Source: Cetorhinus maximus
Taxonomy: Eukaryota
Assembly (NCBI RefSeq): GCF_964194155.1
Contig: NC_135901.1
Location: 21,948,001 to 22,012,000 of the forward strand
DNA: 64,000 nucleotides
Direction of reading: 5' to 3'
The position numbers and the translations under genes are program-made. Positions 1 through 41,458 of the stretch are shown piece after piece. Each line of letters begins with the position of its first letter. Position 1 is the first letter of the stretch. Below the pieces are notes generated by a model. The model saw nothing but the letters and a program-made list of their open reading frames with translations. It was not told where the DNA came from and ran no database searches.

Positions 1-86
1 CCCGCCCGGGGTTTGTTAACCTGCAACAAAAACAAAAATACCTGGAAAAACTCAGCAGGTCTGGCAGCATCGGCGGAGAAGAGCAA

Positions 87-125
87 AGTTGACGTTTCGA
101 GTCCTCATGACCCTTCAAAAGAACT
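87..125 (-). ncRNA. Minimal type I hammerhead ribozyme-like motif (degenerate core)
   Basis: Reverse complement reads AGUU CUUUUGA AGGGUC AUGAG GACUC GAAA CGUC AACU. Stem I is AGUU/AACU and stem II is GGGUC/GACUC. Confidence 0.6.
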
Positions 126-491
126 AAGTAGAAATAGGACAGGGGTGAAATATAAGCTGGTTTAAGGGGGGTGGGGGGGGGGGTGGGGGGAGAAGGGGGT
201 GCGGTTGTTGGGACAAGCAAGCAGTGATAGGAGGAGATAACCAAAAGATGTCACAGACAAAAGCACAAAGAGGTGTTGAAGGTGGTGATATTATCTAAAA
301 GAATATGCCAATTAAGAGCGGAGAGCAGGACAAGCTAGATAGCTCTAGTGGGGGTGGGTGAAATAAAGCATGGGTGGAATACATTTTAAAATAATGGAAA
401 TAGGTGGGAAAAGAAAAATCTATATAAATTATTGGAAAAAACAAAAGGGAGGGGGAAGAAACGGAAAGTGGGTGGGGATGGAGGGGGGAGT

Positions 492-821
492 TCAAGATCT
501 AAAGTTGTGGAACTCAATATTCAGTCTGGAAGGCTGTAAAGCGCTTAGTCGGAAGATGAGATGCTGTTCCTCCAGTTTGCGTTGAGCTTCACTGGAACAA
601 TGCAGCAAGCCAAGGACAGGCATGTGGGCAAGAGAGCAGGGTGGAGTGTTAAAATGGCAAGCGACAGGGAGGTCTGGGTCATGTTTGCGGACAGACCAAA
701 GGTGTTCTGCAAAGTGGTCACCCAGTCTGCGTTTGGTCTCTCCAATGTAGAGGAGACCGCATTGGGCGCAACGAATGCAGTAGACAAAGTTGGGGGAAAT
801 GCAAGTGAAATGCTGCTTCAC
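492..821 (-). pseudogene. GIY-YIG endonuclease domain of Penelope-like element
   Basis: VYCIRCAQCGLLYIGETKRRLGDHFAEHL...VACHF...RKLEEQHLIFRL...LN. Nearly identical to ORF 29301-29630. Confidence 0.9.
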
Positions 822-1212
822 TTGAAAGGAGTGTTTGGGCCCTTGGACGGTGAGGAGAGAGGAAGTGAAGGGGCAGGTGTTGCATAGTTTGCGTTTTCAT
901 GGGAAGGTGCCGTAGGTGGGGGTTGAGGAGTAGGGGGTGATGGAGGAGTGGACCAGGGTGTCATGGAGGGAAGGATCCCTATGGAATGCCACCGGGGGGT
1001 GAAGGGAAGATGTGTTTGTTGGTGGCATCATGCTGGAGTTGGCGGAAATGATGGAGGATGATCTTTTGAATGCGGAGGCTGGTGGGGTGATAAGTGAGGA
1101 CAAAGGGGATCCTATCATGTTTCTGGGAGGGAGGAGAAGGCGTGAGGGCGGATGCGCGGGAGATGGGCCGGACATGGTTGATGGTCCTCTCAACTACCGT
1201 GGGTGGAAAACC

Positions 1213-3030: not shown

Positions 3031-3975
3031 GAGTTAGAAGGGGAGGATTTACAAATGGGAAAATCATAACAAACATCACACTGAGACCTGACAGAGTCAC
3101 TCAATTCTTCAGGACCTGAATATCATCAGCCTTTGAATGTGGAAGGGAAAGGACAGTGTTCTGTCTGTGAGAGAACATTTCGAACATCAGTGTGACTGGA
3201 AAAGCAGCAAGACATTCACACACTCCTGAGTGAGGGTGTGAACTGACTGGAAATAACTTTAACCAGTTACACAGCTGAAAACAAATCACACCATTCACAC
3301 TGGGGAGAAGCTGTACACATGTTGTGTGTGTGAATGAGGCCGCAACTGATTGTCCAATCTGAAGAAAGACAAGGACACTGACACCACGGAGAAACCATGG
3401 AAATGTGGGCACTGTGGGAAGAAATTCAGATCTCCATCTGAGCTGGAAATTCATTGACGCAGTCACACTGGGGAGAGACCATTCACCTGTTCAGTGTGTG
3501 GGAAGGGATTTACTCAGTTATCCACCCTGTTGACACACCAGTGCATTCACACTGGGGAGAGGGCGTTCACCTGCTCCGAGTGTGGTAAGGGATTCATTAA
3601 TTCAACTAACCTGATGAGACACCAGTGGGTTCACTAGAGAGAGGCCGTTTACCTGCTCCGAGTGTGAGAAAGGATTCACTTGTTCAACTGACCTGCAGAA
3701 ACATCAGGAGATGGCCGCTCTGGGGAACGGCCATTTACCTGCTCTGAGTGTGGGATAGCATTCACTCATTCATCAGACCTGCTGAGACACCAACGCTTTC
3801 ACAATAAGGACAGGCCATTCACCTGCTCCAGGTGTGGAAAGGGATTCACTCATTCATCCTACCTACAGAAACACCAACAAATTCACAATGGGGAGAGGCG
3901 GTTAATCTGTTCCATGTACGGGAAGGGATTCATTCACTCCTCCACCCTGCTGAGACACCAGCAAGATCACAAGTT
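3031..3975 (+). pseudogene. C2H2 zinc-finger pseudogene A
   Basis: Acceptor ttttacag at ~3030, then the conserved leader and repeated [16 protein letters not shown] units with stops and indels. The MEKPWKC start is ACG at 3386-3388. Confidence 0.88.
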
Positions 3976-4189
3976 ACTACAATGATTGGACTTTGCTGTG
4001 AAGCATATTCAGGACTGAAATATGTTCATTGGGTTCTGTTTCTGCTGATGTTAATAAACTCCAGTCCTGTAATTGGAGCTAACTTTCTGCATAAAAGTCA
4101 AAGAAACTCATTTTGTATTAAACACAGACTGTTGAGCCTTTTTAATATCTCTAAACTAAGTTAATTCCTTTTGAAGTGTTCTCTCTCTC

Positions 4190-4500
4190 TGCTCTCTCCT
4201 CCATCCTCATCTCCAACTAGTCCGAGGAGCTCATGGAGCTTCTTTGTCACTAAGATTGAGGCAATCTGATCAGTTCACTCTGCTCCTTTCCTCCCTTCTA
4301 CTAGCCCACTGATCCAAACTGCCTCTAAAACTGCCTCTTGCCAAGCCCTGAACTCACGTCTTTCTCCAGTTTCTCTCCAATCTCCCCTCATGCCCTCTCA
4401 GTGCTCACCTTGTCTATGAGACCCATCTCCTGCTCCATCAGCCCGTTTCCTACTCAACTGCCGACCATCCAACTTTTCCATGTTTGGTGACTTTGTTAAA
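4190..4500 (+). mobile_element. Old L2-like LINE fragment shared downstream of ZNF paralogs
   Basis: ctcctccatcctc...gaggagctcatggagcttctttgtcactaagattgag also follows loci B (~17540), D (~32200) and F (~40490, minus). Confidence 0.6.
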
Positions 4501-5131
4501 AGAACCACTATCCTATTTCAGTGAAGGCTGTGGTCGAACAAGGTTGTGTTATTTCTTACGAAAGTATAATAATTTTCACAATATTTTGCTGGTTTGTTGT
4601 AAAGTAGGTATATGTGTGTGAGGGTAGATGGTCCTGTCTATGTGATTTTACTACATTTGGAGTCAGGTAGACTGCAAGCTTGAAATTATCAAAATAAGCT
4701 AGGTGTCGAAATGTACTTGAAATGCTATTGAGTAAACATAGATGCTATTTTAGCATGTAAAATGTGAAGGGAATTTGTATTTTTAGGTATGTGAAAGCAT
4801 TGTTTGGATTTAAAAGGGATGTCAGTCTGTTTGCTACCAGCCAGATAAGCAAGGCTAAGGAGTGTGTTTATTTTTCCCAAAGGTTATTGTCAATATTGGC
4901 AACATGAAAGTTTTTATATTATGGGAAAGGTACAGTTGCAAAGACATATGAAACATTGGAACTTTCATACTAAATAGAAAGAAATGTATATAAGGAAGGC
5001 GCTGGTAAGAAGTGACTGAAGCATTCTGGGAGAAGACTGCAGACACCATGACTCAGGAGGGAATCGAGGAGAAGGTCCCTTGCACTCATCAGGAGGAAGA
5101 GCATCCAACTGAAGGCGCTGGTGAGAAGTGA

Positions 5132-5550
5132 CTGTGACACAGGACTCTGTGCTCTACGGGCTGTTCCCAGGGACACACACCGAGACACAAAGAGTTGTCC
5201 CCGACCGATTGTTGCGGACTGGCACAATCCAAAGTCCAGGACTACGTGCTGAGGGACGCACTAAAGCTTGGGGCAGCTGCCGCAAAGGCGCAATGGGGAA
5301 GGGTCGCTGTCTAAAACCTTTCTACCACAGCGCTCCGAGAGACTGGGAACTGTTTAGAGCCCCTCGGGCTGTACAGATCAAAATGAAAGGCTGTAAATGA
5401 TTGTAATATTGTTTGTACTGATGCACCTGGTGATACATTTTGTAAAAGTTTAACCTGGATTGTACCCTTGTAATGTTGTTTTTGAAATGGTTTTGAATGT
5501 GATTGAAGATTTTTTATGAATAAAGTATATTTTTACAAAAAAAAAAAAAA
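5132..5550 (+). mobile_element. Tx1/L1-clade LINE 3' fragment (copy 1) with internal deletion and poly(A)
   Basis: VTQDSVLYGLFPGTHTE...LKLGAAAAKAQWG coding end, 3' UTR with aataaagtatatttt, and an A-tail. Confidence 0.85.
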
Positions 5551-5567
5551 ATTCTGGGAGAAGTCAC

Positions 5568-6590
5568 AGACTCTCAGTACGCAAACACCAAGTGTCACTA
5601 CGTGCTGAGGTTCTACCTGTCCCCGGTGTTGCGAAGGATGGGTCTGGCCATGCTGCCGCGGAACGCTCCAAGTAGTTGGACCGTGCCGTACCACCTGTCC
5701 CTGGTGGAAAAATTTATGCAGAAAAACACCTTTGACCACAAGTCCATCAGGCAGTGGTCAGCACGTAACGTCCTAGAGGCCCTGAGGGAAAAGGAGAGGG
5801 TGGACCCTGTGGGATGGTTCCCCGAGCAGACTGTCAAAGTCATTTGGCAGAATGCCTCATCGCCAGAACTTTCCAACAAGCACCAAGATGTAGCTTGGCT
5901 GGTGGTGAGAAAGGCCCTCCCTGTCAGATCCTTCCTACACGCCAGGAGGCTCACCCCCTCTGCACGTTGCCCTCGAGGTGGCTGTGGTGGGGAAGAGACC
6001 GTTGTTCACCTCCTTGTGGATTGTGCCTTTGCAAAGAAAGTCTGGAGAGAGATGCAGTGGTTGCTGTCGAGGTTCATCCCGAGCAGTTCTGTGACACAGG
6101 ACTCTGTGCTCTACGGGCTGTTCCCAGGGACACACACCGAGACAAACATCAACTGCAGCTGGAGGATCATCAACTCGGTGAAAGACGCGCTTTGGTCTGC
6201 CCGAAACTTGTTGGTCTTCCAGCACAAAGAGTTGTCCCCGACCGATTGTTGCGGACTGGTACAATCCAAAGTCCAGGACTACGTGCTGAGGGACGCACTA
6301 AAGCTTGGGGCAGCTGCCGCAAAGGCGCAATGGGGAAGGGTCGCTGTCTAAGACCTTTCTACCACAGCGCACCGAGAGAATGGGAACTGTTTAGAGCCCC
6401 TCGGGCTGTACAGATCAAAATGAAAGGCTGTAAATGACTGTAATATTGTTTGTACTGATGCACCTGGTGATACATTTTGTAAAAGTTTAACCTGGATTGT
6501 ACCCTTGTAATGTTGTTTTTGAAATGGTTTGGAATGTGATTGAAGATATTTTATGAATAAAGTATATTTTTACAAAAAAAAAAAAAAAAA
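5568..6590 (+). mobile_element. Tx1/L1-clade LINE 3' fragment (copy 2), ORF2 C-terminus with CCHC zinc knuckle
   Basis: ORF 5602-6351 contains CPRGGCGGEETVVHLLVDC (zf-RVT-like) and W..RN motifs. Poly(A) tail. Flanked by duplicated ATTCTGGGAGAAGTCACA. Confidence 0.9.
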
Positions 6591-6610
6591 ATTCTGGGAG
6601 AAGTCACACT

Positions 6611-7260
6611 TCTGGAGAGAGATGCAGTGGTTTCTGTCGAGGTTCATCCCGAGCAGTTCTGTGACACAGGACTCTGTGCTCTACTGGCTGAACCAGGGAC
6701 ACACACCAAGACAAACATCAAATGCAGCTGGAGGATCATCAACTCGGTGAAAGGTGCTCTTTGGTCTGTCTGAAACTTGTTGGTCTTCCAGCGCGAAGAG
6801 TTATCCCCAACCGAGTGTTGCAGACTGGCACATTCCAAGCTCCAGGACTACGTGCTGAGGGATGCACTAAAGCTTGGGGCAGCTGCCGCAAAGGTGCAAT
6901 TGGGAAAGGTCACTGTCTAAGACCTTTCTGCCATAGTGCACTGAGGGGCTGGGAACTGTTTAGAGCCCCTCGGGCTGTACAGCTCAAAATGAATGTATGC
7001 ATTGAATACTAATTGTATTATAATTGTATTGAAGCAGCTCAGAGTGCAACATGATGTATGTTGATAACTCCAATTGCATTGTCTGTTTGTCTGTAATGAC
7101 CATATTGAAATGATTGTAATATTCATTGATTGTATCGATGCACCTCGTGATCCATGTATAAAAGTTGAATCTGATTGTAATTTTTGTGATAGCGATTTTG
7201 AAATGTTTTGTAATGTTCTTACAGGTATTTTATGAATAAAGTATATTTTTCAAAACAAAA
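6611..7260 (+). mobile_element. Tx1/L1-clade LINE 3' fragment (copy 3, different 3' UTR)
   Basis: Same ORF2 end with stops, and a longer, diverged 3' UTR. The tail is followed by ATTCTGGGAGAAGTCACA. Confidence 0.88.
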
Positions 7261-7393
7261 ATTCTGGGAGAAGTCACAGCAGACACCGTGACTCAGGAGG
7301 GAATCGAGGAGAAGGACTCTTGCGCTCAACAGGAGGAAGAGCATTCAACAAAGGGCGCTGGTGAGAAGTGACTGAAGCATTCTAGGAGAAGTC

Positions 7394-10253
7394 CAAGGTC
7401 ATCGCCAATCGGGTCAAGTCCGCTCTGGAATTGGTGATCCACCCTGACCAGACCTGCGCTGTACTCAGGTATATGTGCAGGACAGGGGCATGGACACCTG
7501 CCTCATCAGCCTGGATCAGGAGAAGGCCTTTGACAGAATATCGCACACCTACATGGTGGATGTGCTCTCCAAAATGGAGTTTGGGGATGGAATTCGCAAT
7601 TGGATCCAACTGCTCTACACTAACATCAGTAGCGCAGTCTCAATCAATGAGTGAGAATCAGATAGCTTTCCCATTAAATCTGGAGTCAGGCAGGGCTGCC
7701 CTCTCTCCCCTGTCCTGTTTGTGTGTTGCATAGAACCCTTTGCTGAGTCCATCAGGAAGGATATGGGCATAAGAGGAGTGATGATCCCAGGCAATGGAGG
7801 CATTCAGGTCAAAGCCTCCCTGTACATGGACAATGTCGCCATCTTCTGCTCGGATCCGCTGTCGGTGCACAGACTGATCCTGCGCATCTGTGACCTGTTC
7901 ATACTGGCCAAGGTGGGAAGAGCGATGCCATGTTCTTTGGGAACTGGGCTGACCGATCCTTTGACCCCTTCACCGTCAAGGCTTACGGCCTGAAGGTGCT
8001 GGAGATATGGTTCGGAGGGGCATGTGTTAGGAACTGGAAGGAGCGAGTGTCTATGGTGCAAAGAAAACTGGACATGTGGGAGTGATGCTCCCTCTCCATT
8101 GTGGGTAAGAACCTGGTCATCAGGTGTGAGGCACTCTCGCTGTTGCTGTACGTGGCTCAGGTTTGTCCCATTCCAGACTCCTGCGCAATGGCGATCACCT
8201 GATCTTTCGCTTTATCTGGAGGTCGAAAATGGATCGTGTCCGCAGGGACACGATGTACAAGCCTCTAGATAAGGGGGGAAAATACATGCCCAACATCGCC
8301 CTCATAAAGATGGCCACCTTTCTGTGCAGCTGCATCAAGCTGTGCGTAGATCCTCGGTACGCAAACACCAAGTGTCACTATGTGCTGAGGTTCTACCTGT
8401 CCCCGGTGTTGTGAAGGATGGGTCTGGCCACGCTGCCACAGAACGCTCCAAGTAGTTGGACCGTGCCGTACCACCTGTCCCTCGTGGAAAAATTTACGCA
8501 GAGAAACACCACAAGTCCATCAGGCAGTGGTCAGCACGTAACATCTTTGAGGCTCTGCGGGAAAAGGAGAGGGTGGATCCTGTGGGATGGTTCCCCAAGT
8601 AGACTGTCAAAGTCATTTGGCAGAATGCCTCATCGCCAGAACTTTCCAACAAGCACCAAGATGTAGCTTGGCTGGTGGTGAGAAAGGCACTCCCTGTCAG
8701 ATCCTTCCAACATGCCAGGAGTTTCACCCCCTCTGCACGTTGTCCTCGAGGTGGCTGTGGTGGAGATGAGACCGTTGTTCACCTCCTTGTGGATTGTGCC
8801 TTTGCAAAAAAAGTCTGGAGAGAGATGCAGTGTGTCCGGCCCATCTCCCGCGCATTCGCCCTCACACCTTCCTCTCCCTCCCAGAACCATGATAGGGTCC
8901 CCCTTGTCCCCACTTATCACCCCATCAGCCTCCACATTCAAAAGATCATCCTCCGCCATTTCCGCCAACTCCAGCACAATGCCACCACCAAACACATCTT
9001 CCCTTCACCCCACCGACCGCCCCCCCCCCCCCACCCCTCCCCCCACCCCCAGCAGCATTCCGCAGGGATCGTTCCCTCTGGGACACCCTGGTCCACTCCT
9101 CCATCACCTGCTACACCTCAACCCCCCCCCCCCCCCCCCCCCCGCGGCACCTTCCCATGCAACCACAGAAGGTGCAACACCTGCCCCTTTACTTCCCCTC
9201 TCCTCACCGTCCAAGGGCCCAAACACTCCTTTAAAGCGAAGCAGCATTTCACTTGCACTTCCCTCAATTTAGTCTACTGCATTCGCCGCTCCAAATGCAG
9301 TTTCCTCTACATTGGAGAGACCAAATGCAGACTGGGTGACCACTTTGTGGAACACCTTCGGTCTGTCCACAAGCATGACCCAGACCTCCCTGTCGCTTGC
9401 CATTTCAACACTCCACCTTGCTCTCATGCCCACATGTCCGTCCTTAGCCTGCTGCATTGTTCCAGTGAAGCTCAACGCAAACTGGAGGAACAGCACCTCA
9501 TCTTCCAACTAGATACTTTATAGCCTTCCAGACTGAATATTGAGTTCAACAATTTTAGATCATGAACTCTCTCCTCCATCCCCACCCCCTTTCGACCCCC
9601 CTTTTTTCCAATAATTTATATAGAATTTTCTTTTCCCACCTATTTCCATTATTTTTAAATGTATTTCCACCCATTGTTTTATCTCTGCCTTTTAGCCTAT
9701 TACGATCCCTTCCTCCCACCCCACCCCCACTAGGGCTATCTGTACCTTTATTATCACATTCCTTAGATAATATCACCAGCTTCAACAGCTCTATGTCCTT
9801 TTGTCTATGACATCTTTTGGTTATCTCCACCTATCACTGGCCCTCTATCCAGCTCTACCTGTCCCACACCCCCCACCGCCCCCTTAAACCAGTTTATATT
9901 TCACCTCTTTTCTATTTTTCCTTAGTTCTGTTGAAGAGTCATATGGACTCAAAACGTTAACTGTGTTACTCTCCGCAGATGCAGTCAGACCTGCTGAGTT
10001 TTTCCAGGTATTTTTGTTTTTGTTTTGGATTTCCAGCATCCGCAGTTTTTTGCTTTTATCTGCAGTGGTTTCAGTCGAGGTTCATCCCGAGCAGTTCTGT
10101 GACACAGGACTCTGTGCACTATGGGCTGAACCAGGGACATACACTGGGACAAACATCAACTGCAGCTGGAGGATCATCAACTCGGTGAAAGACGCTGTTT
10201 GGTCTGCCTGAAACTTGTTGGACTTCCAGCACAAAGAGTTGTCCCCGACCGAG
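7394..10253 (+). mobile_element. Tx1/L1-clade LINE (copy 4) containing RT region, interrupted by a Penelope element, 3'-truncated
   Basis: KVIANRV..VIHPDQTC, LDQEKAFD, SGVRQGCPLSP, IEPFA and LYMDNV (YxDD) motifs. Resumes at 10061 after the nested insert. Confidence 0.88.
8833..10060 (+). mobile_element. 5'-truncated Penelope-like element nested in Tx1 copy 4
   Basis: GIY-YIG (VYCIRRSKCSFLYIGET), pseudo-LTR and hammerhead-like motif at 9924-9962. TSD TGCAGTG at 8826-8832 and 10061-10067. Confidence 0.9.
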
Positions 10254-13599: not shown

Positions 13600-14040
13600 T
13601 CACCATTTGAGACCGTCACAAAGCCCAGGTGATTGACAGCAGCCCCGGACCATTAGGAAGAGGGGGCGTGACTGGAGGTCCGAGTGGGAGCAGCTCGTCC
13701 TCCAACCAATTGGAGTGAATGAGGGGCGGGGCCGAACTGTGACTGAAGCATGCGCAGTGCGGGTAATGGCGATGGAAAGAGTCTTCTTTGTCGGATGTGC
13801 ATTGGTAAGGGGGTAAATGGCGGGGCGGAAGGAGCGATGGATCTGCAGGGTGGGGGGGGAGGCTTCATAAAGATATTCTGTAAATCGCAAACGCGGAAAA
13901 AGAACTGCCTGTTACGCCATTTGCACCTAGCAGGACTGCAGCCTCCACGAATCTGCCCGTGTTAACGGCCGCCATCTTCATTGGGGGCAATGTGGAGCAG
14001 GGCGCATGTCCGGCCGCCATTTTTGTAGGGGGCAATGTTT
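13600..14040 (+). promoter_or_regulatory. CpG-rich promoter/first exon of ZNF locus B
   Basis: CCAAT boxes, GC box ggggcgggg, NRF1-like gcatgcgca (~13748) and two YY1-type cggccgccat(c/t)tt (~13966, ~14011). Confidence 0.7.
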
Positions 14041-16034: not shown

Positions 16035-17324
16035 ATGGAAGGAAAAAGCACTGTTCACAGTGAAGAGAAACCATATAGGTGTTGTGTGTGTGGACAAGGC
16101 TTCAGCCGATCATCTGGCCTGTCGAGGCACAAGCACAGTCACAACAGGGAGAAACCATGGAAATGTGGCGACTGTGGGAAGGCGTTCAGTTACCCGTCTG
16201 ACCTGGAAACTCATCGGCGCAGTCACACTGGGGAGAAGCCATTCACCTGCCCTGAATGTGGGAAGGGATTCACTCAGTCATCCAGCCTGCTGAAACACCA
16301 GCGAGATCACAATGGGGAGAGACCGTTCACCTGCTCCGAATGTGGGAAAGGATTCACTCAGTTATCACATCTGTTAGGGCACCAACGTGCTCACACTGGG
16401 GAGAGGCCATTCACCTGCTCAGAGTGTGGGAAGGGATTCGCTCAGTCATTCCATCTGCTGACACATCAGCGAGTTCACACTGATGAGAGACCTTTTAAAT
16501 GCCTGGCTTGTGGGAAATGCTTTAAAAGTTCTGGGGAATTAGTGTACCATCAACGTGTTCACACTGGGGAGAGACCTTTTAAATGCTCAGACTGTGGGAA
16601 GTGCTTTAAAAGTTCTGGGGACCTGATGTCCCATCAACGTGTTCACACTGACGAGAGACCATTCAGGTGCTCTCACTGCGGGTCTGGATTCAGGCAATCA
16701 TCTCAACTCACTGTACACCAGCGAGTTCACACTGGAGAGAGACCATTCACCTGCTCCGAGTGTGGGAAGGGATTCACTCAGTTATCGCACCTGATGGCAC
16801 ACCAGCGAATTCACACTGGGGAAAGGCCATTTATCTGCTCCGAGTGTGGGAGTGGATTCACTCAGTTATCTGAACTGCTGAAACATCAGCGAGTTCACAC
16901 AGGGGAGAGACCATTCATCTGTTCTGAGTGTGGGAAAGGATTCACTCAATCATCCAATCTACTGAGGCACCAGCGAGTTCACACAGACGAGAGACCTTTT
17001 AAATGCCCAGACTGTGGGAAGTGTTTTAAAAGTTCTGGGGAACTGATTTCCCATCAACGTGTTCACATGGACAAGAGACCTTTTAGATGCCCAGACTGCA
17101 GGAAGTCATTTAAAAGTTCTGGGGAGCTGGTGTCCCATCAACGTGTTCACACTGACGAGAGACCGTTCAGGTGCTCTCACTGCGGGACTGGGTTCAGGCG
17201 ATCAACTCAACTCACTGTACACCAGCGAATTCACACCGGAGAGAGACCATTTACCTGCTCCGAGTGTGGGAAGGGATTCACTCACTCAGGCAACCTGCTG
17301 AGACACCAGCAAGATCACAAGTAA
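16035..17324 (+). CDS. C2H2 zinc-finger protein B, 15 tandem fingers, no effector domain seen
   Basis: Intact 429-aa ORF of CxxC-x12-HxxxH units with TGERPF linkers. Acceptor tttcacag at 15927, in-frame TGA at 15987 upstream of the ATG, and AATAAA at 17401 and ~17449. Confidence 0.92.
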
Positions 17325-17539
17325 CTACAGTGATTGGAGTTTGGTGTTAATCACATTCAGGACTGAATCATGTTCACTGGGGTAAGATTCTGCTGATGTT
17401 AATAAACTCCAGCTGTGTTATAGGGGCTAATATTCTGGATAAAAGTCTAATAAATCAGCTTTGTGCTCAACACACAACTGTCAGGTCTTTTTAATATCTC
17501 TAACGCAGGTTAATTCATTTTGAAGGGCTCTCCCTCTCC

Positions 17540-18320
17540 CGTCTCCTCCATCCTCACCTTCAATAACAAGTGTGAGGAGTTCATGGCGCTTCATTGTCAC
17601 TAAGACTGAGACAATCCAATCAGCTGCCTCTGCTGCTTCCTCCCTTCCACTAGCCCACCGAGACAACCTGCCTCTAAAGTTCCTTCTTGTCGGAGACCTG
17701 AACTCCTATCTCTTGTTATGACCCTGTCAGAGCTCATTTTGTCCTTGAGACTTGCCTTCTGCTCCCTGACCCTGTTCTCATTAAACTGCTGACCATTTAA
17801 CTTCCCCATGTTAGTTGATACTGTTAACAGTTCTCTCTCTTTTTTGGTACTGTCCCTTCCACCTTTAAGTTCACCATCATCATGCATCCTGAAAAAAAAA
17901 TGACCCCAATGTCCTCTCAAACTACTGCCCCATCTCCAACCTCCCTTTCCTCTCCAAAGTCCTTGAACTTGGTGTCCCCCAAGGATCCTTGGTCCCTCCT
18001 ATTTCTCACCTACATGCTGCCACTAGGTGACATCATCCAAAAGCACCGCATTAGTTTTCACATGTACACTGACAACGCCCAGCTCTACCTCACCAACATC
18101 CCTCTCCATTCCTCCACTGTTACTAAATTATCAAACTGCTTATCCGACATCCAGTACTGGATGAGCAGAAATTTCTTCCAATTAAAAATTGGGAAGACCA
18201 AAGTCATTGCCTTCAGTCACCACTACAAATTCCGTTCCCTAACTACCGAGTCCATCCCTCTCCCTGGGAACTGTCTGAGGCTGAACCACGCTCTTCACAA
18301 TCTTGGTGTCAGATTTGACC
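17540..18320 (+). mobile_element. L2-like LINE remnant
   Basis: ORF 17882: LLFLTYMLPLGDIIQKHRISFHMYTDNAQLYL...CLSDIQYWMSRNFFQLKIGKT, a degenerate L2 RT. Confidence 0.8.
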
Positions 18321-28487: not shown

Positions 28488-29975
28488 AAAACAAAAAACT
28501 ACTGCGGATGCTGGAAATCCAAAACAAAAACAGAATTACCTGGAAAAGCTCAGCAGGTCTGGCAGCATCGGCGGAGAAGAAAAGAGTTGACGTTTCGAGT
28601 CCTTATGACCCTTCAGCAGAACTGAGTAAAGAAGCTCCACCCCTCCATCCTTTTCACATGGTCCATCTCTGACACTTCCCTTCCCTTCCTTGACCTCTCT
28701 GTCTCAATTTCTGGTGATAGACTGTCCACCAATATCCATTACAAGCCTACCGACTCCCACAGCTACCTTGACTACAACTCCTCACACCCCGCTTCCTGTA
28801 AGGACTCCATCCCATTCTCTCAGTTCTTTCACCTCTTTCGCATCTGTTCTGATTATGCTACCTTCAAAAACAGTTCCTCTGACATGTCCTCCTTCTTCCT
28901 TAACTGAGGTTTTCCACCCACGGTAGTTGACAGGGCCCTCAACCGTGTCCAGCCCATCTCCCGCGCATCCGCCCTCACGCCTTCTCCTCCCTCCCAGAAA
29001 CATGATAGGATCCCCCTTGTCCTCACTTATCACCCCACCAGCCTCCGCATTCAAAGGATCATCCTCCGCCATTTCCGCCAACTCCAGCATGATGCCACCA
29101 CCAAACACATCTTCCCTTCACCCCCCCCGGCGGCATTCCGTAGGGATCGTTCCCTCCGTGACACCCTGGTCCACTCCTCCATCACCCCCTATTCCTCAAC
29201 GCCCACCTACGGCACATTCCCATGCAAACGCAAAATATGCAACACCTGCCCCTTCACTTCCTCTCTCCTCACCATCCAAGGGCCCAAACACTCCTTTCAA
29301 GTGAAGCAGCATTTCATTTGCATTTCCCCCAACTTAGTCTACTGCATTTGTTGCTCCCAATGCGGTCTCCTCTACATTGGAGAGACCAAACGCAGACTGG
29401 GTGACTGCTTTGCAGAACACCTTCGGTCTGTCCGCAAACATGACCCAGACCTCCCTGTCGCTTGCCATTTTAACACTCCACCCTGCTCTCTTGCCCACAT
29501 GCCTGTCCTTGGCTTGCTGCATTGTTCCAGTGAAGCTCAACGCAAACTGGAGGAACAACACCTCATCTTCCGACTAAGCGCTTTACAGCCTTCCAGACTG
29601 AATATTGAGTTCCACAACTTTAGATCTTGAACTCCCTCCTCCATCCCCACCCCCTTTCCGTTTCTTCCCCCTCCCTTTTGTTTTTTCCAATAATTTATAT
29701 AAATTTTTCGTTTCCCTCCTATTTACATTATTCTTAAATGTATTCCTCCCATGGTTTATTTCACCCCACCCCCACTAGAGCTACCTTGCTTGTCCTGCTC
29801 TCCACTCTTAATTGGCATATTCTTTTAGACAATATCACCACCTTCAACACCTCTTTGTGCTTTTGTCTGTGACATCTTTTGGTTATCTCCTCCTATCACT
29901 GCTTGCTTGTCCCAACAACGCCCGCCACCCCCCCATTCTTCCCATCCCCACCCCCCTTAAACCAGCTTATATTTC
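28488..29975. mobile_element. Penelope element with inversion (tail on minus 28488-28630, body on plus 28631-29975)
   Basis: GIY-YIG ORF 29301-29630 is nearly identical to 492-821. The hammerhead and tail are inverted at the left end. Confidence 0.9.
28585..28623 (-). ncRNA. Minimal hammerhead ribozyme-like motif
   Basis: AGUU CUGCUGA AGGGUC AUAAG GACUC GAAA CGUC AACU, with a GUC cleavage triplet and ACGU palindrome. Confidence 0.7.
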
Positions 29976-31387: not shown

Positions 31388-32001
31388 ATGGAAGGAAAAA
31401 GCCCCGTTCACAATGGGGAGAAACCATACACATGTTCTGTGTGTGGGCAAAGTTACAGGCGACCATCTGGCCTGTCAAAACACAAGCACATTCACATTGG
31501 GGAGAAACCGTGGAAATATGGACACTGTGGCAAAGGGTTCAGTTACAGGTTTGAGCTGGCAAATCATCAGTTCACACTGGGGAGAGGCTATTCACCTGCT
31601 CAGAGTGTGGGAAGGGATTTGCCCGTTCATCTGATCTTCTGACGCACCAGCGAGTTCACAATGAAGAGAGACCTTTTAAATGCCTGGACTGTGGTAAGTG
31701 TTTTAAAAGTTGTAGTGAACTAATGCGTCATCAACATATTCACACTGATGAGAGACCGTTCAGGTGCTCTCACTGCGGGACTTGGTTCAAGACATCATCT
31801 GACCTCACTGTTCATTGGCGTGTTCACATTGGGGAGAGGCCATTCACCTGCTATGCATGTGGGAAGGGATTCACGACCTCATCGAACCTGCTGGAACACC
31901 AGCGAGTTCACACTGGGGAGAGACCGTTCACCTGCTCCGTGTGTGGGAAGAGATTTGCGTGTTCATCCACCCTGCTGAAACACTGGCGAGTTCACAAGTA
32001 A
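31388..32001 (+). pseudogene. C2H2 zinc-finger pseudogene D (about 7 fingers, frameshift near 31570)
   Basis: [16 protein letters not shown] start. catcagttcac deletion shifts the frame. The downstream fingers end in HK-stop at 32001. Confidence 0.85.
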
Positions 32002-33504
32002 TTACAGTGATTGGATTTGCCTGTTTATCACATCCAGGACTGAACTATGTTAATTTGGGGCTGATGCTGCTGATGTTCATAAATATTAGCCCAGTTGCGG
32101 ATAAAAGTCACATCATTCAGCTTTGTGTTAAACAAACAAGGTGTTGAGTCTTTTTAATATCCCTAACACTAGTTATTTCCTTTTGAAGGGCTATCCCTCT
32201 CCCCTGCCTCCTCCATCCTCACCTCCAACAACAAGTGTGAGGAGCTCATGGAGCTTCTTTGTCACTAAGATTGAGACAATCCAATCAGCTGCCTCTGCTG
32301 CTTCCCTCTCTTCCACTTGCCCACCGGACCAAACTGCCTCTAAAGTCCACCCTTGCCCGAGCCCTGAACTCTGATAGTTCTTTCGTTTCTCTCCCCTTAC
32401 ACTCTCTGAGGACGCAAATTGTCCATGAGACCCCTCTGGTGCTCTATCGACCATTTTGCCACTAAACTGCTGATCACCCAACGTGTTCATTGACTTTGTT
32501 AATGATTCTCTTCCTTCAGGCACTGCCACTTCATCAAATCCGCCATCATCACACCCTCCTCACTGAAAACAACTTTTCACCGTCCTTGCAAACCTTTGCC
32601 CCATCTGCAGCCTCCCTTTCTTTTGCACAGTCTTGAAATGTGTTGTCACCACCCAAATCCTGCCCATCATTTCGGAACGTCATGTTTGAATCCCTCCAAT
32701 AAGATTCTGACCTTGCTGCAATATCGAAACAGGTCTTCCCAAAGTTCCAAATGACATCCTATTTCATTAAGGAAATAAAGGTAAACTATCTCTCATCATT
32801 CCTCTTGACCAGCCTTCAGAGTTTGATATGGTTGGCCAAACCATTCTCCTCCAATGCCTTTCCACCGTTCCCCAGCTGATTGTGTCTTCACACTCTGGTT
32901 CCTTTCTTATCTATCGAATTGTCGGCAGAAAATCACCCTTCCAGGGTAATCTAAGGTAGACTGGGCATTTTTCAGAGTTGAAAGTGACGCCCTAAAGCCT
33001 GTTCATGAGTTTGCATGATATACAGCGTGAAATGATCTGATCAGGGTAGCCTTTATCCTGTAGGATGTCTATGATGCGCCTGATTTCAGCATCAGGCTTG
33101 GTGAGCAAATGGCTCGAGTCCGATTTACAATGTTGCTGATAAGACCAATCTTATAGCATCAGGGACTGTAAGAATCCCAATGTGTACATTGATCAGTGAA
33201 GGTAGGCTTGTAGTAGACCTGCAAACAATGTTTTCCCCTTACATTAGTATTCTTACAAAATTTATTAGAGTTCTTTGAGGGCTTAACAAACAGAGTGCAT
33301 AAACGGGAACCAGTTTATGTGATGTTTCTGGATTTCCAAAACAAAACATTCAATAAGGTGCACATAAAAGGTTACTGCACCTGATGAAACTTATAGTTTT
33401 GATCATGGAGGGGAGGGTGGTGGGAGGCAGTGTTGGGCGGGGTGGGGTGGGCTGATACATTAGTACAGACAGGGGATTCATTAATATCAGGAAACAGAGT
33501 CAGG

Positions 33505-38496: not shown

Positions 38497-39687
38497 GACA
38501 GCCTGATCACCTGAGCCATCTTCCGCTTTATCTGGAGGTCGAAAATGGATTGTGTCCGCAGGGACACGATGTACAAGCCTCTAGATAAAGGGGGAAAAAA
38601 CGTGCCCAACATCGCCCTCATACTGATGGCCACCTTTGTGTGTGGCTGCATCAAGCAGTGCGTAGACCCTCAGTATGCAAACACCAAGTGTTACTCACTA
38701 CTTGCTGATGTTCTACTTGTCCTCAGTGTTGCGAAGGATGGGTCTGGCCACGCTGCCGTGGAACGCTCTAAGTAGTTGGACCATGCCGTACCACCTGTCC
38801 CTCATGGGAAAATTTATGCAGAGAAACACCTTTGACCACAAGTCCATCAGGCAGTGGTCAGCACGTAACGTCTTAGAGGCCCTGAGGGAAAAGGAGAGGG
38901 TGGATCCGGTGGGATGGTTCCCCGAGCAGACTGTCACAGTCATTTGGCAGAATGCCTCATTGCCAGAACTTTCCAACAAGCACCAAGACGTAGCTTGGCT
39001 GGTGGTGAGAAAGGCCCTCCCCGTCAGATCCTTCCTACATGCCAGGAGTCTCACCCCCTCTGCACGGTGCCCTCGAGATGGCTGTGGTGGGGAAGAGACT
39101 GTTGTTCACCTCCTTGTAGATTGTGCCTTTGCAAAGAAGGTCTGGAGAGAGATGCAGTGGTTTCTGTCGAGGTTCATCCTGAGCAGTTCTGTGACACAGG
39201 ACTCTGTGCTCTACGGGCTGTTCCCAGGGACACACACCGAGAGAAACATCAACTGCAGCTGGAGGATCATCAACTTGGTGAAAGACGCTCTTTGGTCTGC
39301 CCGAAACTTGTTGGTCTTCCAGCGCAAAGAGTTGTCCCCGACCGAGTGTTGCAGACTGGCACATTCCAAAGTCCAGGACTACGTGCTGAGGGATGCACTA
39401 AAGCTTGGGGCAGCTGCTGCAAAGGCGCAATGGGGAAGGGTCGCTGCTTAAGACCTTTCTGCCACAGTGCACTAAGGGACTGGGAACTGTTTAAATCCCC
39501 ACGGGCTGTACAGCTCAAAATGAATGTCTGCAAATGATTGTAATATTCATTTATTGTATTGATGCATTTCGTGATACACATTGTAAAAGTTGAACCTGAT
39601 TGTATTTTTGTGATGGTGATTTTGAAATGGTTTGAAATTTTGTTGAAGATATTTTGTGAATAAAGTATATTTTTGCAAAAAAAAAAG
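38497..39687 (+). mobile_element. Tx1/L1-clade LINE 3' fragment (copy 5)
   Basis: ORF 38675-39451 is near-identical to 5602-6351. aataaagtatattttt plus poly(A). No TSD. Confidence 0.9.
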
Positions 39688-40500
39688 ACAATGGCTTTGG
39701 TCTTCCCAATTTTTAATTGGAGGAAATTTCTGCTCATCCAGTACTAAATGTTGGATAAACAGTTTGATAATTTAGTAACAGGGGAGGAATGGAGAGGGAT
39801 GGTGGGGAGGTAGAGCTGGGCGTTGTCAGTGTACATGTGAAAACTAACGTGGTGCTTTTGGATGATGTCACCTTGTGGCAGCTTGTAGATGAGAAATAGG
39901 AGGGACCAAGGATAAATCATTGGGGGACACCAAGTTCAAGGACTTTGGATGGGAAATGGAGGTTGGAGATGGGCGGTAATTAGAAAAGATGGTGAGGTCA
40001 AAGGTTGTTTTTTTTAGGGAGGCAACAGTGGATTTAAAGGTGAGGGGGACAATATTGGAAGTGAGAGAGAACTGTTAACAATATCAGCTAACATGGAGAA
40101 GTTGGGTAGTCAGCAGTTTAGTGAGAATGGGGTCAAGGGAGCAGACGTCTGGTGTCTAAGCAGGGTGAATGACTGTGTGCATCTCTTCCCACACACAGAG
40201 CAGGTGAATGGTCTCTCCCCAGTGTGAACTCGCTGGTGTCTCAGCAGGGTGGGTCTCACAGACATGATGAGCTCTGACATGCTTGACCGGAGATCGGAGA
40301 GAAACTGGAGAAAGATGTGAGTTCAGAACTTGGAAAAAAGCGACTTTAGAGACAGTTTGGTCCGGTGGGTGAGTGGAAAGAAGGGAAGCAGCAGAGGCAG
40401 CTGATCAGATTGTCTCAATCTTAGTGACAAAGAAGCTCCATGAGCTCCTCACATTTGTTTTGGAGGTAAGGATGGAGGAGACAGGGAGAGGGAGAGCACT
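39688..40500 (-). mobile_element. L2-like remnant downstream of ZNF F (paralog of 17540-18210)
   Basis: Reverse complement matches 17540-18210. Confidence 0.75.
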
Positions 40501-40688
40501 TCAAAAGGGACTAATTTTTGTTAAAAAGACTCAACACACTGTATGTTTAACACAAAGCTGATTTATTTGACTTTTATCTAGAATATTCTCCTTATAACTG
40601 GGCTGGAGTTTATGAACATCAGCAGATAGACCCTAGTGAACATGGTTCAGTCCTGGATGTGATTAACAGCAAAATCCAATCATTGTAG

Positions 40689-41458
40689 TTATTTATGAAC
40701 TTGCTGGTGTGTCCACAGGCTGGAAAACTGAATGAATCCCTTTCCACACTTGGAGCAGATGAATGGTCTCTCCTCAGTGTGAACTTGCTGGTGTCTCAGC
40801 AGGGTGGATGACTGATTGAATCCCTCACCACACTTTGAGCAGGTGAATGATTTCTCTCCGCTGTGAGTGCGCTGGTGTATGGCAAGACAAGATGATCGTC
40901 TGAACTTAGTCCCACAATGAGAGCACCTGAACGGTCTCTTATCAGTGTGAACACATTAATGATGCATCAGTTCCTGGGAAGTTTTATAACACTTCCCACA
41001 GTCTGGGCATTTAAAAGGTCTCTCGTCGGTGTGAACTCACTGGTGTGTCATCAGGTTGGCTGAAGAAATAAACCCTTTCCCACATTCGGAGCAGGTGAAT
41101 GCCCTCTCCCCCGGGTGAACTCGCTGGTGTGTCTGCAAGTGGGATGACTGAGTGAATCCCTTTCCACACTCAGAGCAGGTAGATGGCCTCTGCCCCGTGT
41201 GAACTCGCTGGTGTGCCAGCAGGGTGGATAACTTTGCAAATCCCTTCCCACAGCCAGAGCAGGTGATCGGCCTCTCCCCAGTGTGACTGCGCTGATGGGT
41301 AATCAAATCCCTTCCCACGGTCCCACGTTTCCATGGTTTCTCCCCCTGTTGTGACTGCATTTATGTTCTGACAAGTCAGATGATTGGTTGAAGCCTCGTC
41401 CACACACAGAACACGTGTACAGTTTCTCCTCACTGTAAACAGTGCTTTTTCCTCCCAT
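40689..41458 (-). pseudogene. C2H2 zinc-finger pseudogene F
   Basis: MGGKSTV-type start and HTGERP units with frameshifts and stops. Terminal HK-TAA and 3' UTR are paralogous to B. Confidence 0.85.

Follow-up and report, generated by a model that had tools for sequence, protein, structure and literature searches.

Families of the Tx1 clade of long interspersed nuclear elements (LINEs) are known to insert into multicopy sequences, the target of Mutsu being 5S and that of Dewa tRNA arrays. We have analysed a stretch of 64,000 nucleotides (nt) from Cetorhinus maximus (contig NC_135901.1, positions 21,948,001 to 22,012,000 of the forward strand; hereafter the window, with positions counted from its first letter), in which copies of a LINE family likely to belong to this clade are stacked within a short tandem repeat (hereafter the array). 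As with Keno, Mutsu and Dewa, insertion has taken place at one base of a multicopy sequence, but those families target RNA genes, whereas no Rfam family at gathering level and no tRNA is found in the window. Keno inserts at U2 (PMC4494074). Other Tx1 families favour Mariner, Harbinger, long terminal repeat (LTR) retrotransposons, satellites and microsatellites, with preferences ranging from 13% to 90%, and a family was counted as target-specific when more than 20% of its genome-wide flanks fell in one sequence type (Kojima 2015, PMC4494074). The list of Tx1 targets in a preliminary description of this locus was incomplete, since the Mariner, Harbinger, LTR retrotransposon and satellite preferences in the same source were missing from it.

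In crocodilians, Tx1-Mar and SINEU-3 also represent Tx1 machinery that prefers a site within another repeat. Tandem SINEU-3 insertions sandwich a 16-nt duplication, and target truncations occur as well (PMC4494074). The duplication at our locus is 15-19 nt; tandem insertions around one duplication are common to both cases, and duplications together with target truncations are likewise seen here. The crocodilian case differs in its host and in its duplication, which is AGGTTCCCATCAGCAT in Mariner-N4_AMi (PMC4494074). Since Tx1 preferences for transposons and satellites, as well as tandem insertions around a duplication, have been described in that source, the arrangement reported here is of a known kind. 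In Xenopus, Tx1L targets Tx1D, and its endonuclease nicks this target almost exclusively (PMC1950540, PMC6719617, PMC4494074). The array may resemble that pair in that an APE-type LINE has entered a second mobile element at a constant position, but Tx1L is stringent, whereas one of the four intact 3′ ends in our window lies outside the array, and Tx1D is a DNA transposon, whereas a search of the window for terminal inverted repeats of a host transposon gave none. We presume that Tx1D contains internal tandem repeats. The Kibi and Koshi families target microsatellites (PMC3812793, PMC4494074), namely (TC)n, (TTC)n, (TTCC)n and (TTTC)n, whereas the unit here is a complex sequence of 116-118 bp; the excerpts of PMC2684134 give no accessions for Kibi or Koshi.

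Insertions at one base of the array

Without its insertions, the array consists of a 28-nt partial unit, unit A of 116 nt, unit B of 118 nt and 16 nt of a third unit (Table 1), with units A and B sharing 89.5% identity over 114 columns. The tandem repeat of ~117 bp reported earlier is therefore real, but only ~2.4 units are visible and the repeat has no further occurrence in the window. Exact matches to the 17-mer ATTCTGGGAGAAGTCAC begin at 5551, 6591 and 7261, and two further matches, at 5023 and 7379, have three mismatches each; these five compare with 0.31 expected, and none of 100 shuffles reaches five. As previously described, each exact match directly follows an A-rich LINE tail (ending at 5550, 6590 and 7260), and each tail has AATAAA upstream. 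The site GTGACTGAAGC^ATTCT occurs at three boundaries, the first of which (5022/5023) is empty, the second holding copies 1-3 and the third copy 4. The stretch that begins at this base also precedes three 5′ junctions, as claimed, over 17-19 nt in copy 2, 18 nt in copy 3 and 12-15 nt in copy 4, where the ranges reflect microhomology. Altogether, the same base is abutted by three of the four intact 3′ ends and three of the five 5′ junctions, and in each of copies 1-4 one junction or both fall at this base or no more than 4 nt away. The target-site duplications proposed earlier are fully borne out in two of the four array copies. Target sequence stands on both sides of copies 2 and 3 only; the 5′ end of copy 1 joins GTGACTG (5134) with a deletion of 4 target nt, a 3-nt CTG microhomology and no 5′ duplication, and the 3′ end of copy 4 is missing.

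Along the DNA, the array copies stand in the order 1, 2, 3, 4. Their pairwise identities are 98.3% (412/419) between copies 1 and 2, 86.5% between 2 and 3, 93.7% between 2 and 4, and 90.3% between 3 and 4. In alignment, the 3′ untranslated region (UTR) of copy 3 is ~107 nt longer than those of copies 1, 2 and 5, which bears out that there are two or more different 3′ UTRs. Because copy 1 is possibly a trimmed local duplicate of copy 2, we count copy 1/2, copy 3 and copy 4 as at least three independent insertions at the same base of the 116/118-bp repeat, rather than the four put forward before; divergence shows no independence of copies 1 and 2. Could a non-specific, abundant LINE have been multiplied here by unequal crossing-over between duplications, with later deletion trimming of one or two insertions? 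The near identity of copies 1 and 2 and a 1-nt frameshift allele common to copies 3 and 4 are in line with this, and duplicated zinc-finger units cluster in the region, where deletions are seen at copies 4 and 5. We nevertheless consider it unlikely, because copies 3 and 4 have diverged as far as stated and have duplications of unequal length, the 3′ UTR structure of copies 2 and 3 differs, and at least three independent events are left even if copy 1 came from copy 2. Nor is copy 3 simply a deleted duplicate of copy 4, since its 18-nt duplication is longer than that of copy 4. An assembly artefact is extremely improbable: the region is repeat-rich and copies 1 and 2 are nearly identical, but private junctions and substitutions are found in each copy, and copy 1 has an 80-nt deletion of its own.

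The frameshift allele of copies 3 and 4 (at 6683-6686 and about 10128-10131), ~90 codons ahead of the stop of open reading frame 2 (ORF2), is the sole 2:2 informative site among copies 2-5. It suggests one source lineage, in which the source gene was defective or altered yet still spreading. Over 205 shared columns, copies 2, 3, 4 and 5 carry 3, 9, 8 and 3 private substitutions and 10, 6, 6 and 8 CpG dinucleotides, respectively. Copy 2 has the fewest private substitutions in two of three comparisons (with one tie) and the most CpG in all three. Copy 2 thus looks youngest and copy 3 older, a modest gradient. Younger copies standing 5′ of an older one would fit re-use of a regenerated site whose upstream flank is kept.

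All repeat stretches ahead of the copies begin at the same ATTCT, and a TATA-like box lies upstream of the array. The 15-19 nt might accordingly be a 5′ head, gained by template switching from an array transcript whose start at ATTCT lies 36 nt beyond the first base of TATATAA at 4987; U1/U2 heads are known on crocodilian Tx1 families (PMC4494074). This is, in our view, quite improbable, as targeting to the locus would still be required, the duplication-like length of three heads is left unexplained, copy 5 has no head, and the repeat unit has neither an Rfam match nor a stable fold.

Two further similarities were seen between LINE and target. In the 3′ UTRs of copies 1 (5499-5508) and 2 (6536-6545), GTGATTGAAG lies ~40 nt before the poly(A) with one mismatch to the target core, possibly by chance. 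Over a 22-nt stretch, the ORF2 codons for WQNAS (5838-5859, 8611-8632) show 77% complementarity to the top strand of the target where it spans the nick; this, too, is probably a coincidence, given that relatives conserve the peptide.

The LINE family, its fifth copy and its probable target preference

The family shows the hallmarks of an APE-type LINE of the L1 group, namely a reverse transcriptase (RT), a C-terminal CCHC zinc knuckle, a 3′ UTR with AATAAA and poly(A), and 5′ truncation. The ORF2 piece of copy 2 matches zf-RVT (Pfam PF13966, E = 1.8e-11), for which the ESM Atlas gave confirmation and nothing further, and the RT pieces of copy 4 match RVT_1 (E = 1.7e-10 and 1.6e-4). Full-length relatives carry Exo_endo_phos (APE), RVT_1 and zf-RVT and match human L1 ORF2p in PDB; in two that bear APE (P0008 and P0013) the RT is ~47-51% identical to that of copy 4. 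ORF1 is absent from the window, and precomputed annotation assigns PF23057, which we take to be a Tx1-type ORF1 domain, to a close relative (P0002, 72% across one third of the query). In a FastTree phylogeny of 90 RT-region sequences, copy 4 joins two close relatives with a support of 1.0; amphibian proteins follow (0.946), and after them a teleost clade (0.996) that includes Takifugu Q76B34, presumably a Kibi/Koshi element; the sole TX1-labelled protein (P0079) falls outside the group of copy 4. On this tree, which contains no curated Keno, Kibi, Koshi, Mutsu, Dewa or Tx1L reference, membership in the Tx1 clade is no more than likely.

A protein library search returned 811 proteins at E up to 0.001. 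Close relatives make up 65 of the 148 newly listed library proteins examined, one library protein matches, over 195 residues, a shifted reading of copy 2 at 96% identity, and a Heterodontus francisci gene model holds a piece of the family (60% identity to P0001, 64% to copy 2), which points to a cartilaginous-fish host. This is an abundant lineage, the subfamilies of which may not share one specificity. Tx1-like repeats are present in sharks (PMC8455134). We found no description of the family in the literature searched by titles and abstract starts, a search that Repbase and Dfam lie outside, and no occurrence of three target strings in a literature search that Repbase and subscription papers lie outside.

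A fifth family member, at 38505-39686 (Table 1), had been overlooked. The poly(A) of copy 5 runs into the middle of an oppositely oriented L2-like remnant, and its 5′ side meets the 3′ UTR of a zinc-finger gene; both the downstream motif and a duplication are absent. Copy 5 shows that family members also occur outside the array and, because its intact tail is followed by a different sequence, that the motif is not part of the LINE 3′ end. The nearest empty paralogue of its flank (18211, minus strand, 92.9% identical) reads GTGACTGAA^GGCAATG and contains the upstream 10-mer of the array, GTGACTGAAG, with the junction 2 nt earlier; the offset is up to 4 nt if A residues of the target were absorbed into the tail. 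Such a 10-nt run in common with the target near the nick is reached at 108 of 127,880 strand-positions. Five paralogues of the copy 5 flank share 10, 9, 8, 5 and 4 nt with the target, and a score of at least 8 nt, seen in three of the five, is reached at 612 of 127,880 strand-positions. These results suggest that copy 5 is a near-cognate insertion, its upstream flank being reconstructed from paralogous sequences. In the window as a whole, GTGACTGAAG occurs six times against about 0.3 expected. Separately, the upstream core of the target is held by two unoccupied, paralogous GC-rich promoter-like stretches (13724-13760 and 2905-2960), as GTGACTGAAGCAT (13 nt identical) at 13739 and as GTGACTGAAG at 2930.

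At least three diverged copies have inserted at one base and enclose target DNA between them, which supports a sequence-directed endonuclease and the proposed serial stacking at a regenerated site. Strict site specificity, by which the family would insert almost only into this repeat as Keno does in U2 genes, would agree with all four array copies having a junction at most 4 nt from the same base and with the presence there of two subfamilies with different 3′ UTRs. It is nonetheless doubtful, given that copy 5 lies outside the array, that the protein library contains many decayed close relatives, some fused to apparent CR1 or host-gene sequence, and that one relative lies within a collagen gene model of Heterodontus francisci. 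The off-array copy 5 (offset 2-4 nt) and the empty site at 5012-5035 argue for preference over strict specificity. We think it probable that a sequence-preferring, not strictly specific, Tx1-like APE endonuclease acted together with serial stacking, with a preference centred on GTGACTGAAGC^ATTCTGG. The bottom strand would be nicked opposite C^A, and the 3′-OH at the nick would prime reverse transcription at the poly(A); a cut of the top strand 15-19 nt downstream would then give rise to the target duplication. Each insertion would leave an upstream copy of the site with the original upstream flank, into which later copies could enter, copy 3 being followed by copy 2 and then by copy 1, while copy 4 would have entered the following repeat unit at this very base. 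The preference would be strong without being absolute, in that near-cognate sites with the upstream core may also be usable, as in copy 5.

Several observations weigh against a preference of this kind. The evidence comes from one locus only, and the proportion of intact 3′ ends followed by the motif, three of four, refers to a window chosen for the cluster. Five of the six exact GTGACTGAAG matches in the window have no adjoining LINE copy, and the intact site at 5012-5035 is empty. For copy 5, the upstream flank is derived via paralogues, two of the five share only 4-5 nt with the target, and the nick would lie 2-4 nt from the array position. No endonuclease domain is present in the window, as all five copies are truncated and lack the N-terminal APE. 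The age gradient is modest, because copy 1 has 12 private changes against 15 in copy 3 in one comparison, and in one three-way comparison copy 2 has 14 and copy 5 has 10. Finally, no convincing target-derived peptide was found in the 148 library proteins examined, a weak test since most of them look like spliced gene models.

The probable element carrying the array and its surroundings

The array is preceded by a lead-in of ~490 bp, at the start of which (4499-4518) homology to three paralogues ends. This stretch breaks into an L2-like remnant close to a TTAA/TGT junction, has lost its far end, and closes with the TATA-like TATATAAG at 4987-4994, just ahead of the array; with nhmmer, no second copy was found in the window. 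It resembles one end of another inserted element, possibly an LTR element or a TTAA-type DNA transposon, and is probably the body of the element that carries the target array. A promoter function of the TATA-like box is putative, judged from its sequence. Most likely, the array is part of another decayed mobile or repeated element, although no terminal repeat and no coding match was found when the target region was examined as a transposon.

Other identities of the target were rejected. As for an RNA gene, the window-wide Rfam and tRNA results given above are negative, the two sub-threshold Rfam hits in 4400-7500 both lie across poly(A) junctions and far below the cutoff, and no stable fold was seen in the repeat units (folding z-scores from -0.16 to +1.16 for four unit strands). 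A coding sequence does not suit units of 116 and 118 nt, which are not multiples of three and have stops in all plus-strand frames; one of the six unit frames (40 amino acids, unit A), searched among longer proteins only, gave nothing at E up to 10, and no convincing unit-derived peptide was found in 271 proteins. There is no microsatellite at the site, and its flanks are complex sequence. The earlier statement that the target is unlike snRNA, rRNA and tRNA genes or microsatellites is thus upheld. An older repeat unit upstream of the array is not convincing, since scores as high are obtained in 52 and 51 of 2000 shuffles but also in 177 and 143 of 1278 window tiles. In control searches, which are silent on eukaryotes, the 24-nt target had 0 hits and the ORF 0 relatives in prokaryotic genomes, and the lead-in had no match in plasmids. 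Unit A (5045-5134) also contains CACCATG, TGACTCA and CTG/GTGAGA, which we take to be Kozak-like, AP-1-like and donor-like, respectively, with no function implied.

The window is filled by a cluster of vertebrate C2H2 zinc-finger genes, with 84-bp-period arrays in nine groups and one ORF matching zf-C2H2 (E = 5.6e-96), and LINE fragments are plentiful. The common 3′ UTR and L2-like remnant of the paralogous units indicate that the cluster grew by whole-unit duplication. The GIY-YIG element inside copy 4 is presumably Penelope-like; the GIY-YIG matches of two related copies (25-1174 and 28945-29901) fall below the cutoff.

Table 1. Coordinates of the array, the LINE copies and neighbouring features in the window
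Feature	Position	Strand	Remarks
AT-rich lead-in	4503-4994		Unique, GC 34%; breaks into L2-like remnant of paralogous zinc-finger units
Partial repeat unit, 28 nt	4995-5022	+	Ends GTGACTGAAGC; with next 13 nt matches 7354-7391 at 36/38 nt
Unoccupied intact 24-nt target site	5012-5035	+	Diverges from occupied sites from position +14 (2-nt gap)
Repeat unit A	5023-5134	+	112 of 116 nt left; last 4 nt gone at copy 1 junction
LINE copy 1	5135-5550	+	5′-truncated; 80-nt internal deletion at 5187/5188; short 3′ UTR; pure poly(A)
Target duplicate, 17-19 nt	5551-5569	+	3′ flank of copy 1 and 5′ duplication of copy 2
LINE copy 2	5568-6590	+	Short 3′ UTR; pure poly(A); open 259-codon C-terminal ORF2 piece with zf-RVT
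Target duplicate, 18 nt	6591-6608	+	3′ flank of copy 2 and 5′ duplication of copy 3
LINE copy 3	6611-7260	+	Longer 3′ UTR; decayed tail; 1-nt frameshift allele common with copy 4
Repeat unit B, 118 nt	7261-7378	+	No Rfam family, no stable fold
Third unit start	7379-7393	+	12-15 nt 5′ duplication-like stretch ahead of copy 4
LINE copy 4	7394-10253	+	Starts within RT domain; decayed; broken at 8833-10060; 3′ end lost at 10253
Penelope-like (GIY-YIG) insertion in copy 4	8833-10060		Clean 7-bp duplication TGCAGTG at 8826-8832 and 10061-10067
Penelope-like (GIY-YIG) elements	8833-10060, 25-1174 (-), 28945-29901 (+)
LINE copy 5	38505-39686	+	Same family, outside array; 92.3% identical to copy 2
Paralogous zinc-finger gene units	3463-4502, 16811-17830, 31571-32502, 40250-41202 (-)		Common 3′ UTR, then same L2-like remnant

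Significance of the locus

A more far-reaching interpretation, which we hold only tentatively and regard as rather unlikely, is that the family represents an undescribed Tx1 lineage of cartilaginous fish with microsatellite-targeting relatives, the endonuclease of which reads a complex site of ~20 bp at the transcription start of a repeated element. If this is true, the LINE would insert in sense orientation behind a borrowed TATA promoter and would stack upon itself in a fixed 3′-to-5′ order, and the locus would represent a new APE target specificity, with on-target and near-target sites forming a natural series. Only a small number of APE-type LINE endonucleases whose targets are complex sequences have been characterised, and such enzymes inform the evolution of target specificity and offer leads for site-directed insertion tools. 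The locus yields a precise predicted nick site and duplication length, and its candidate near-cognate site suggests that the upstream flank forms the core of recognition.

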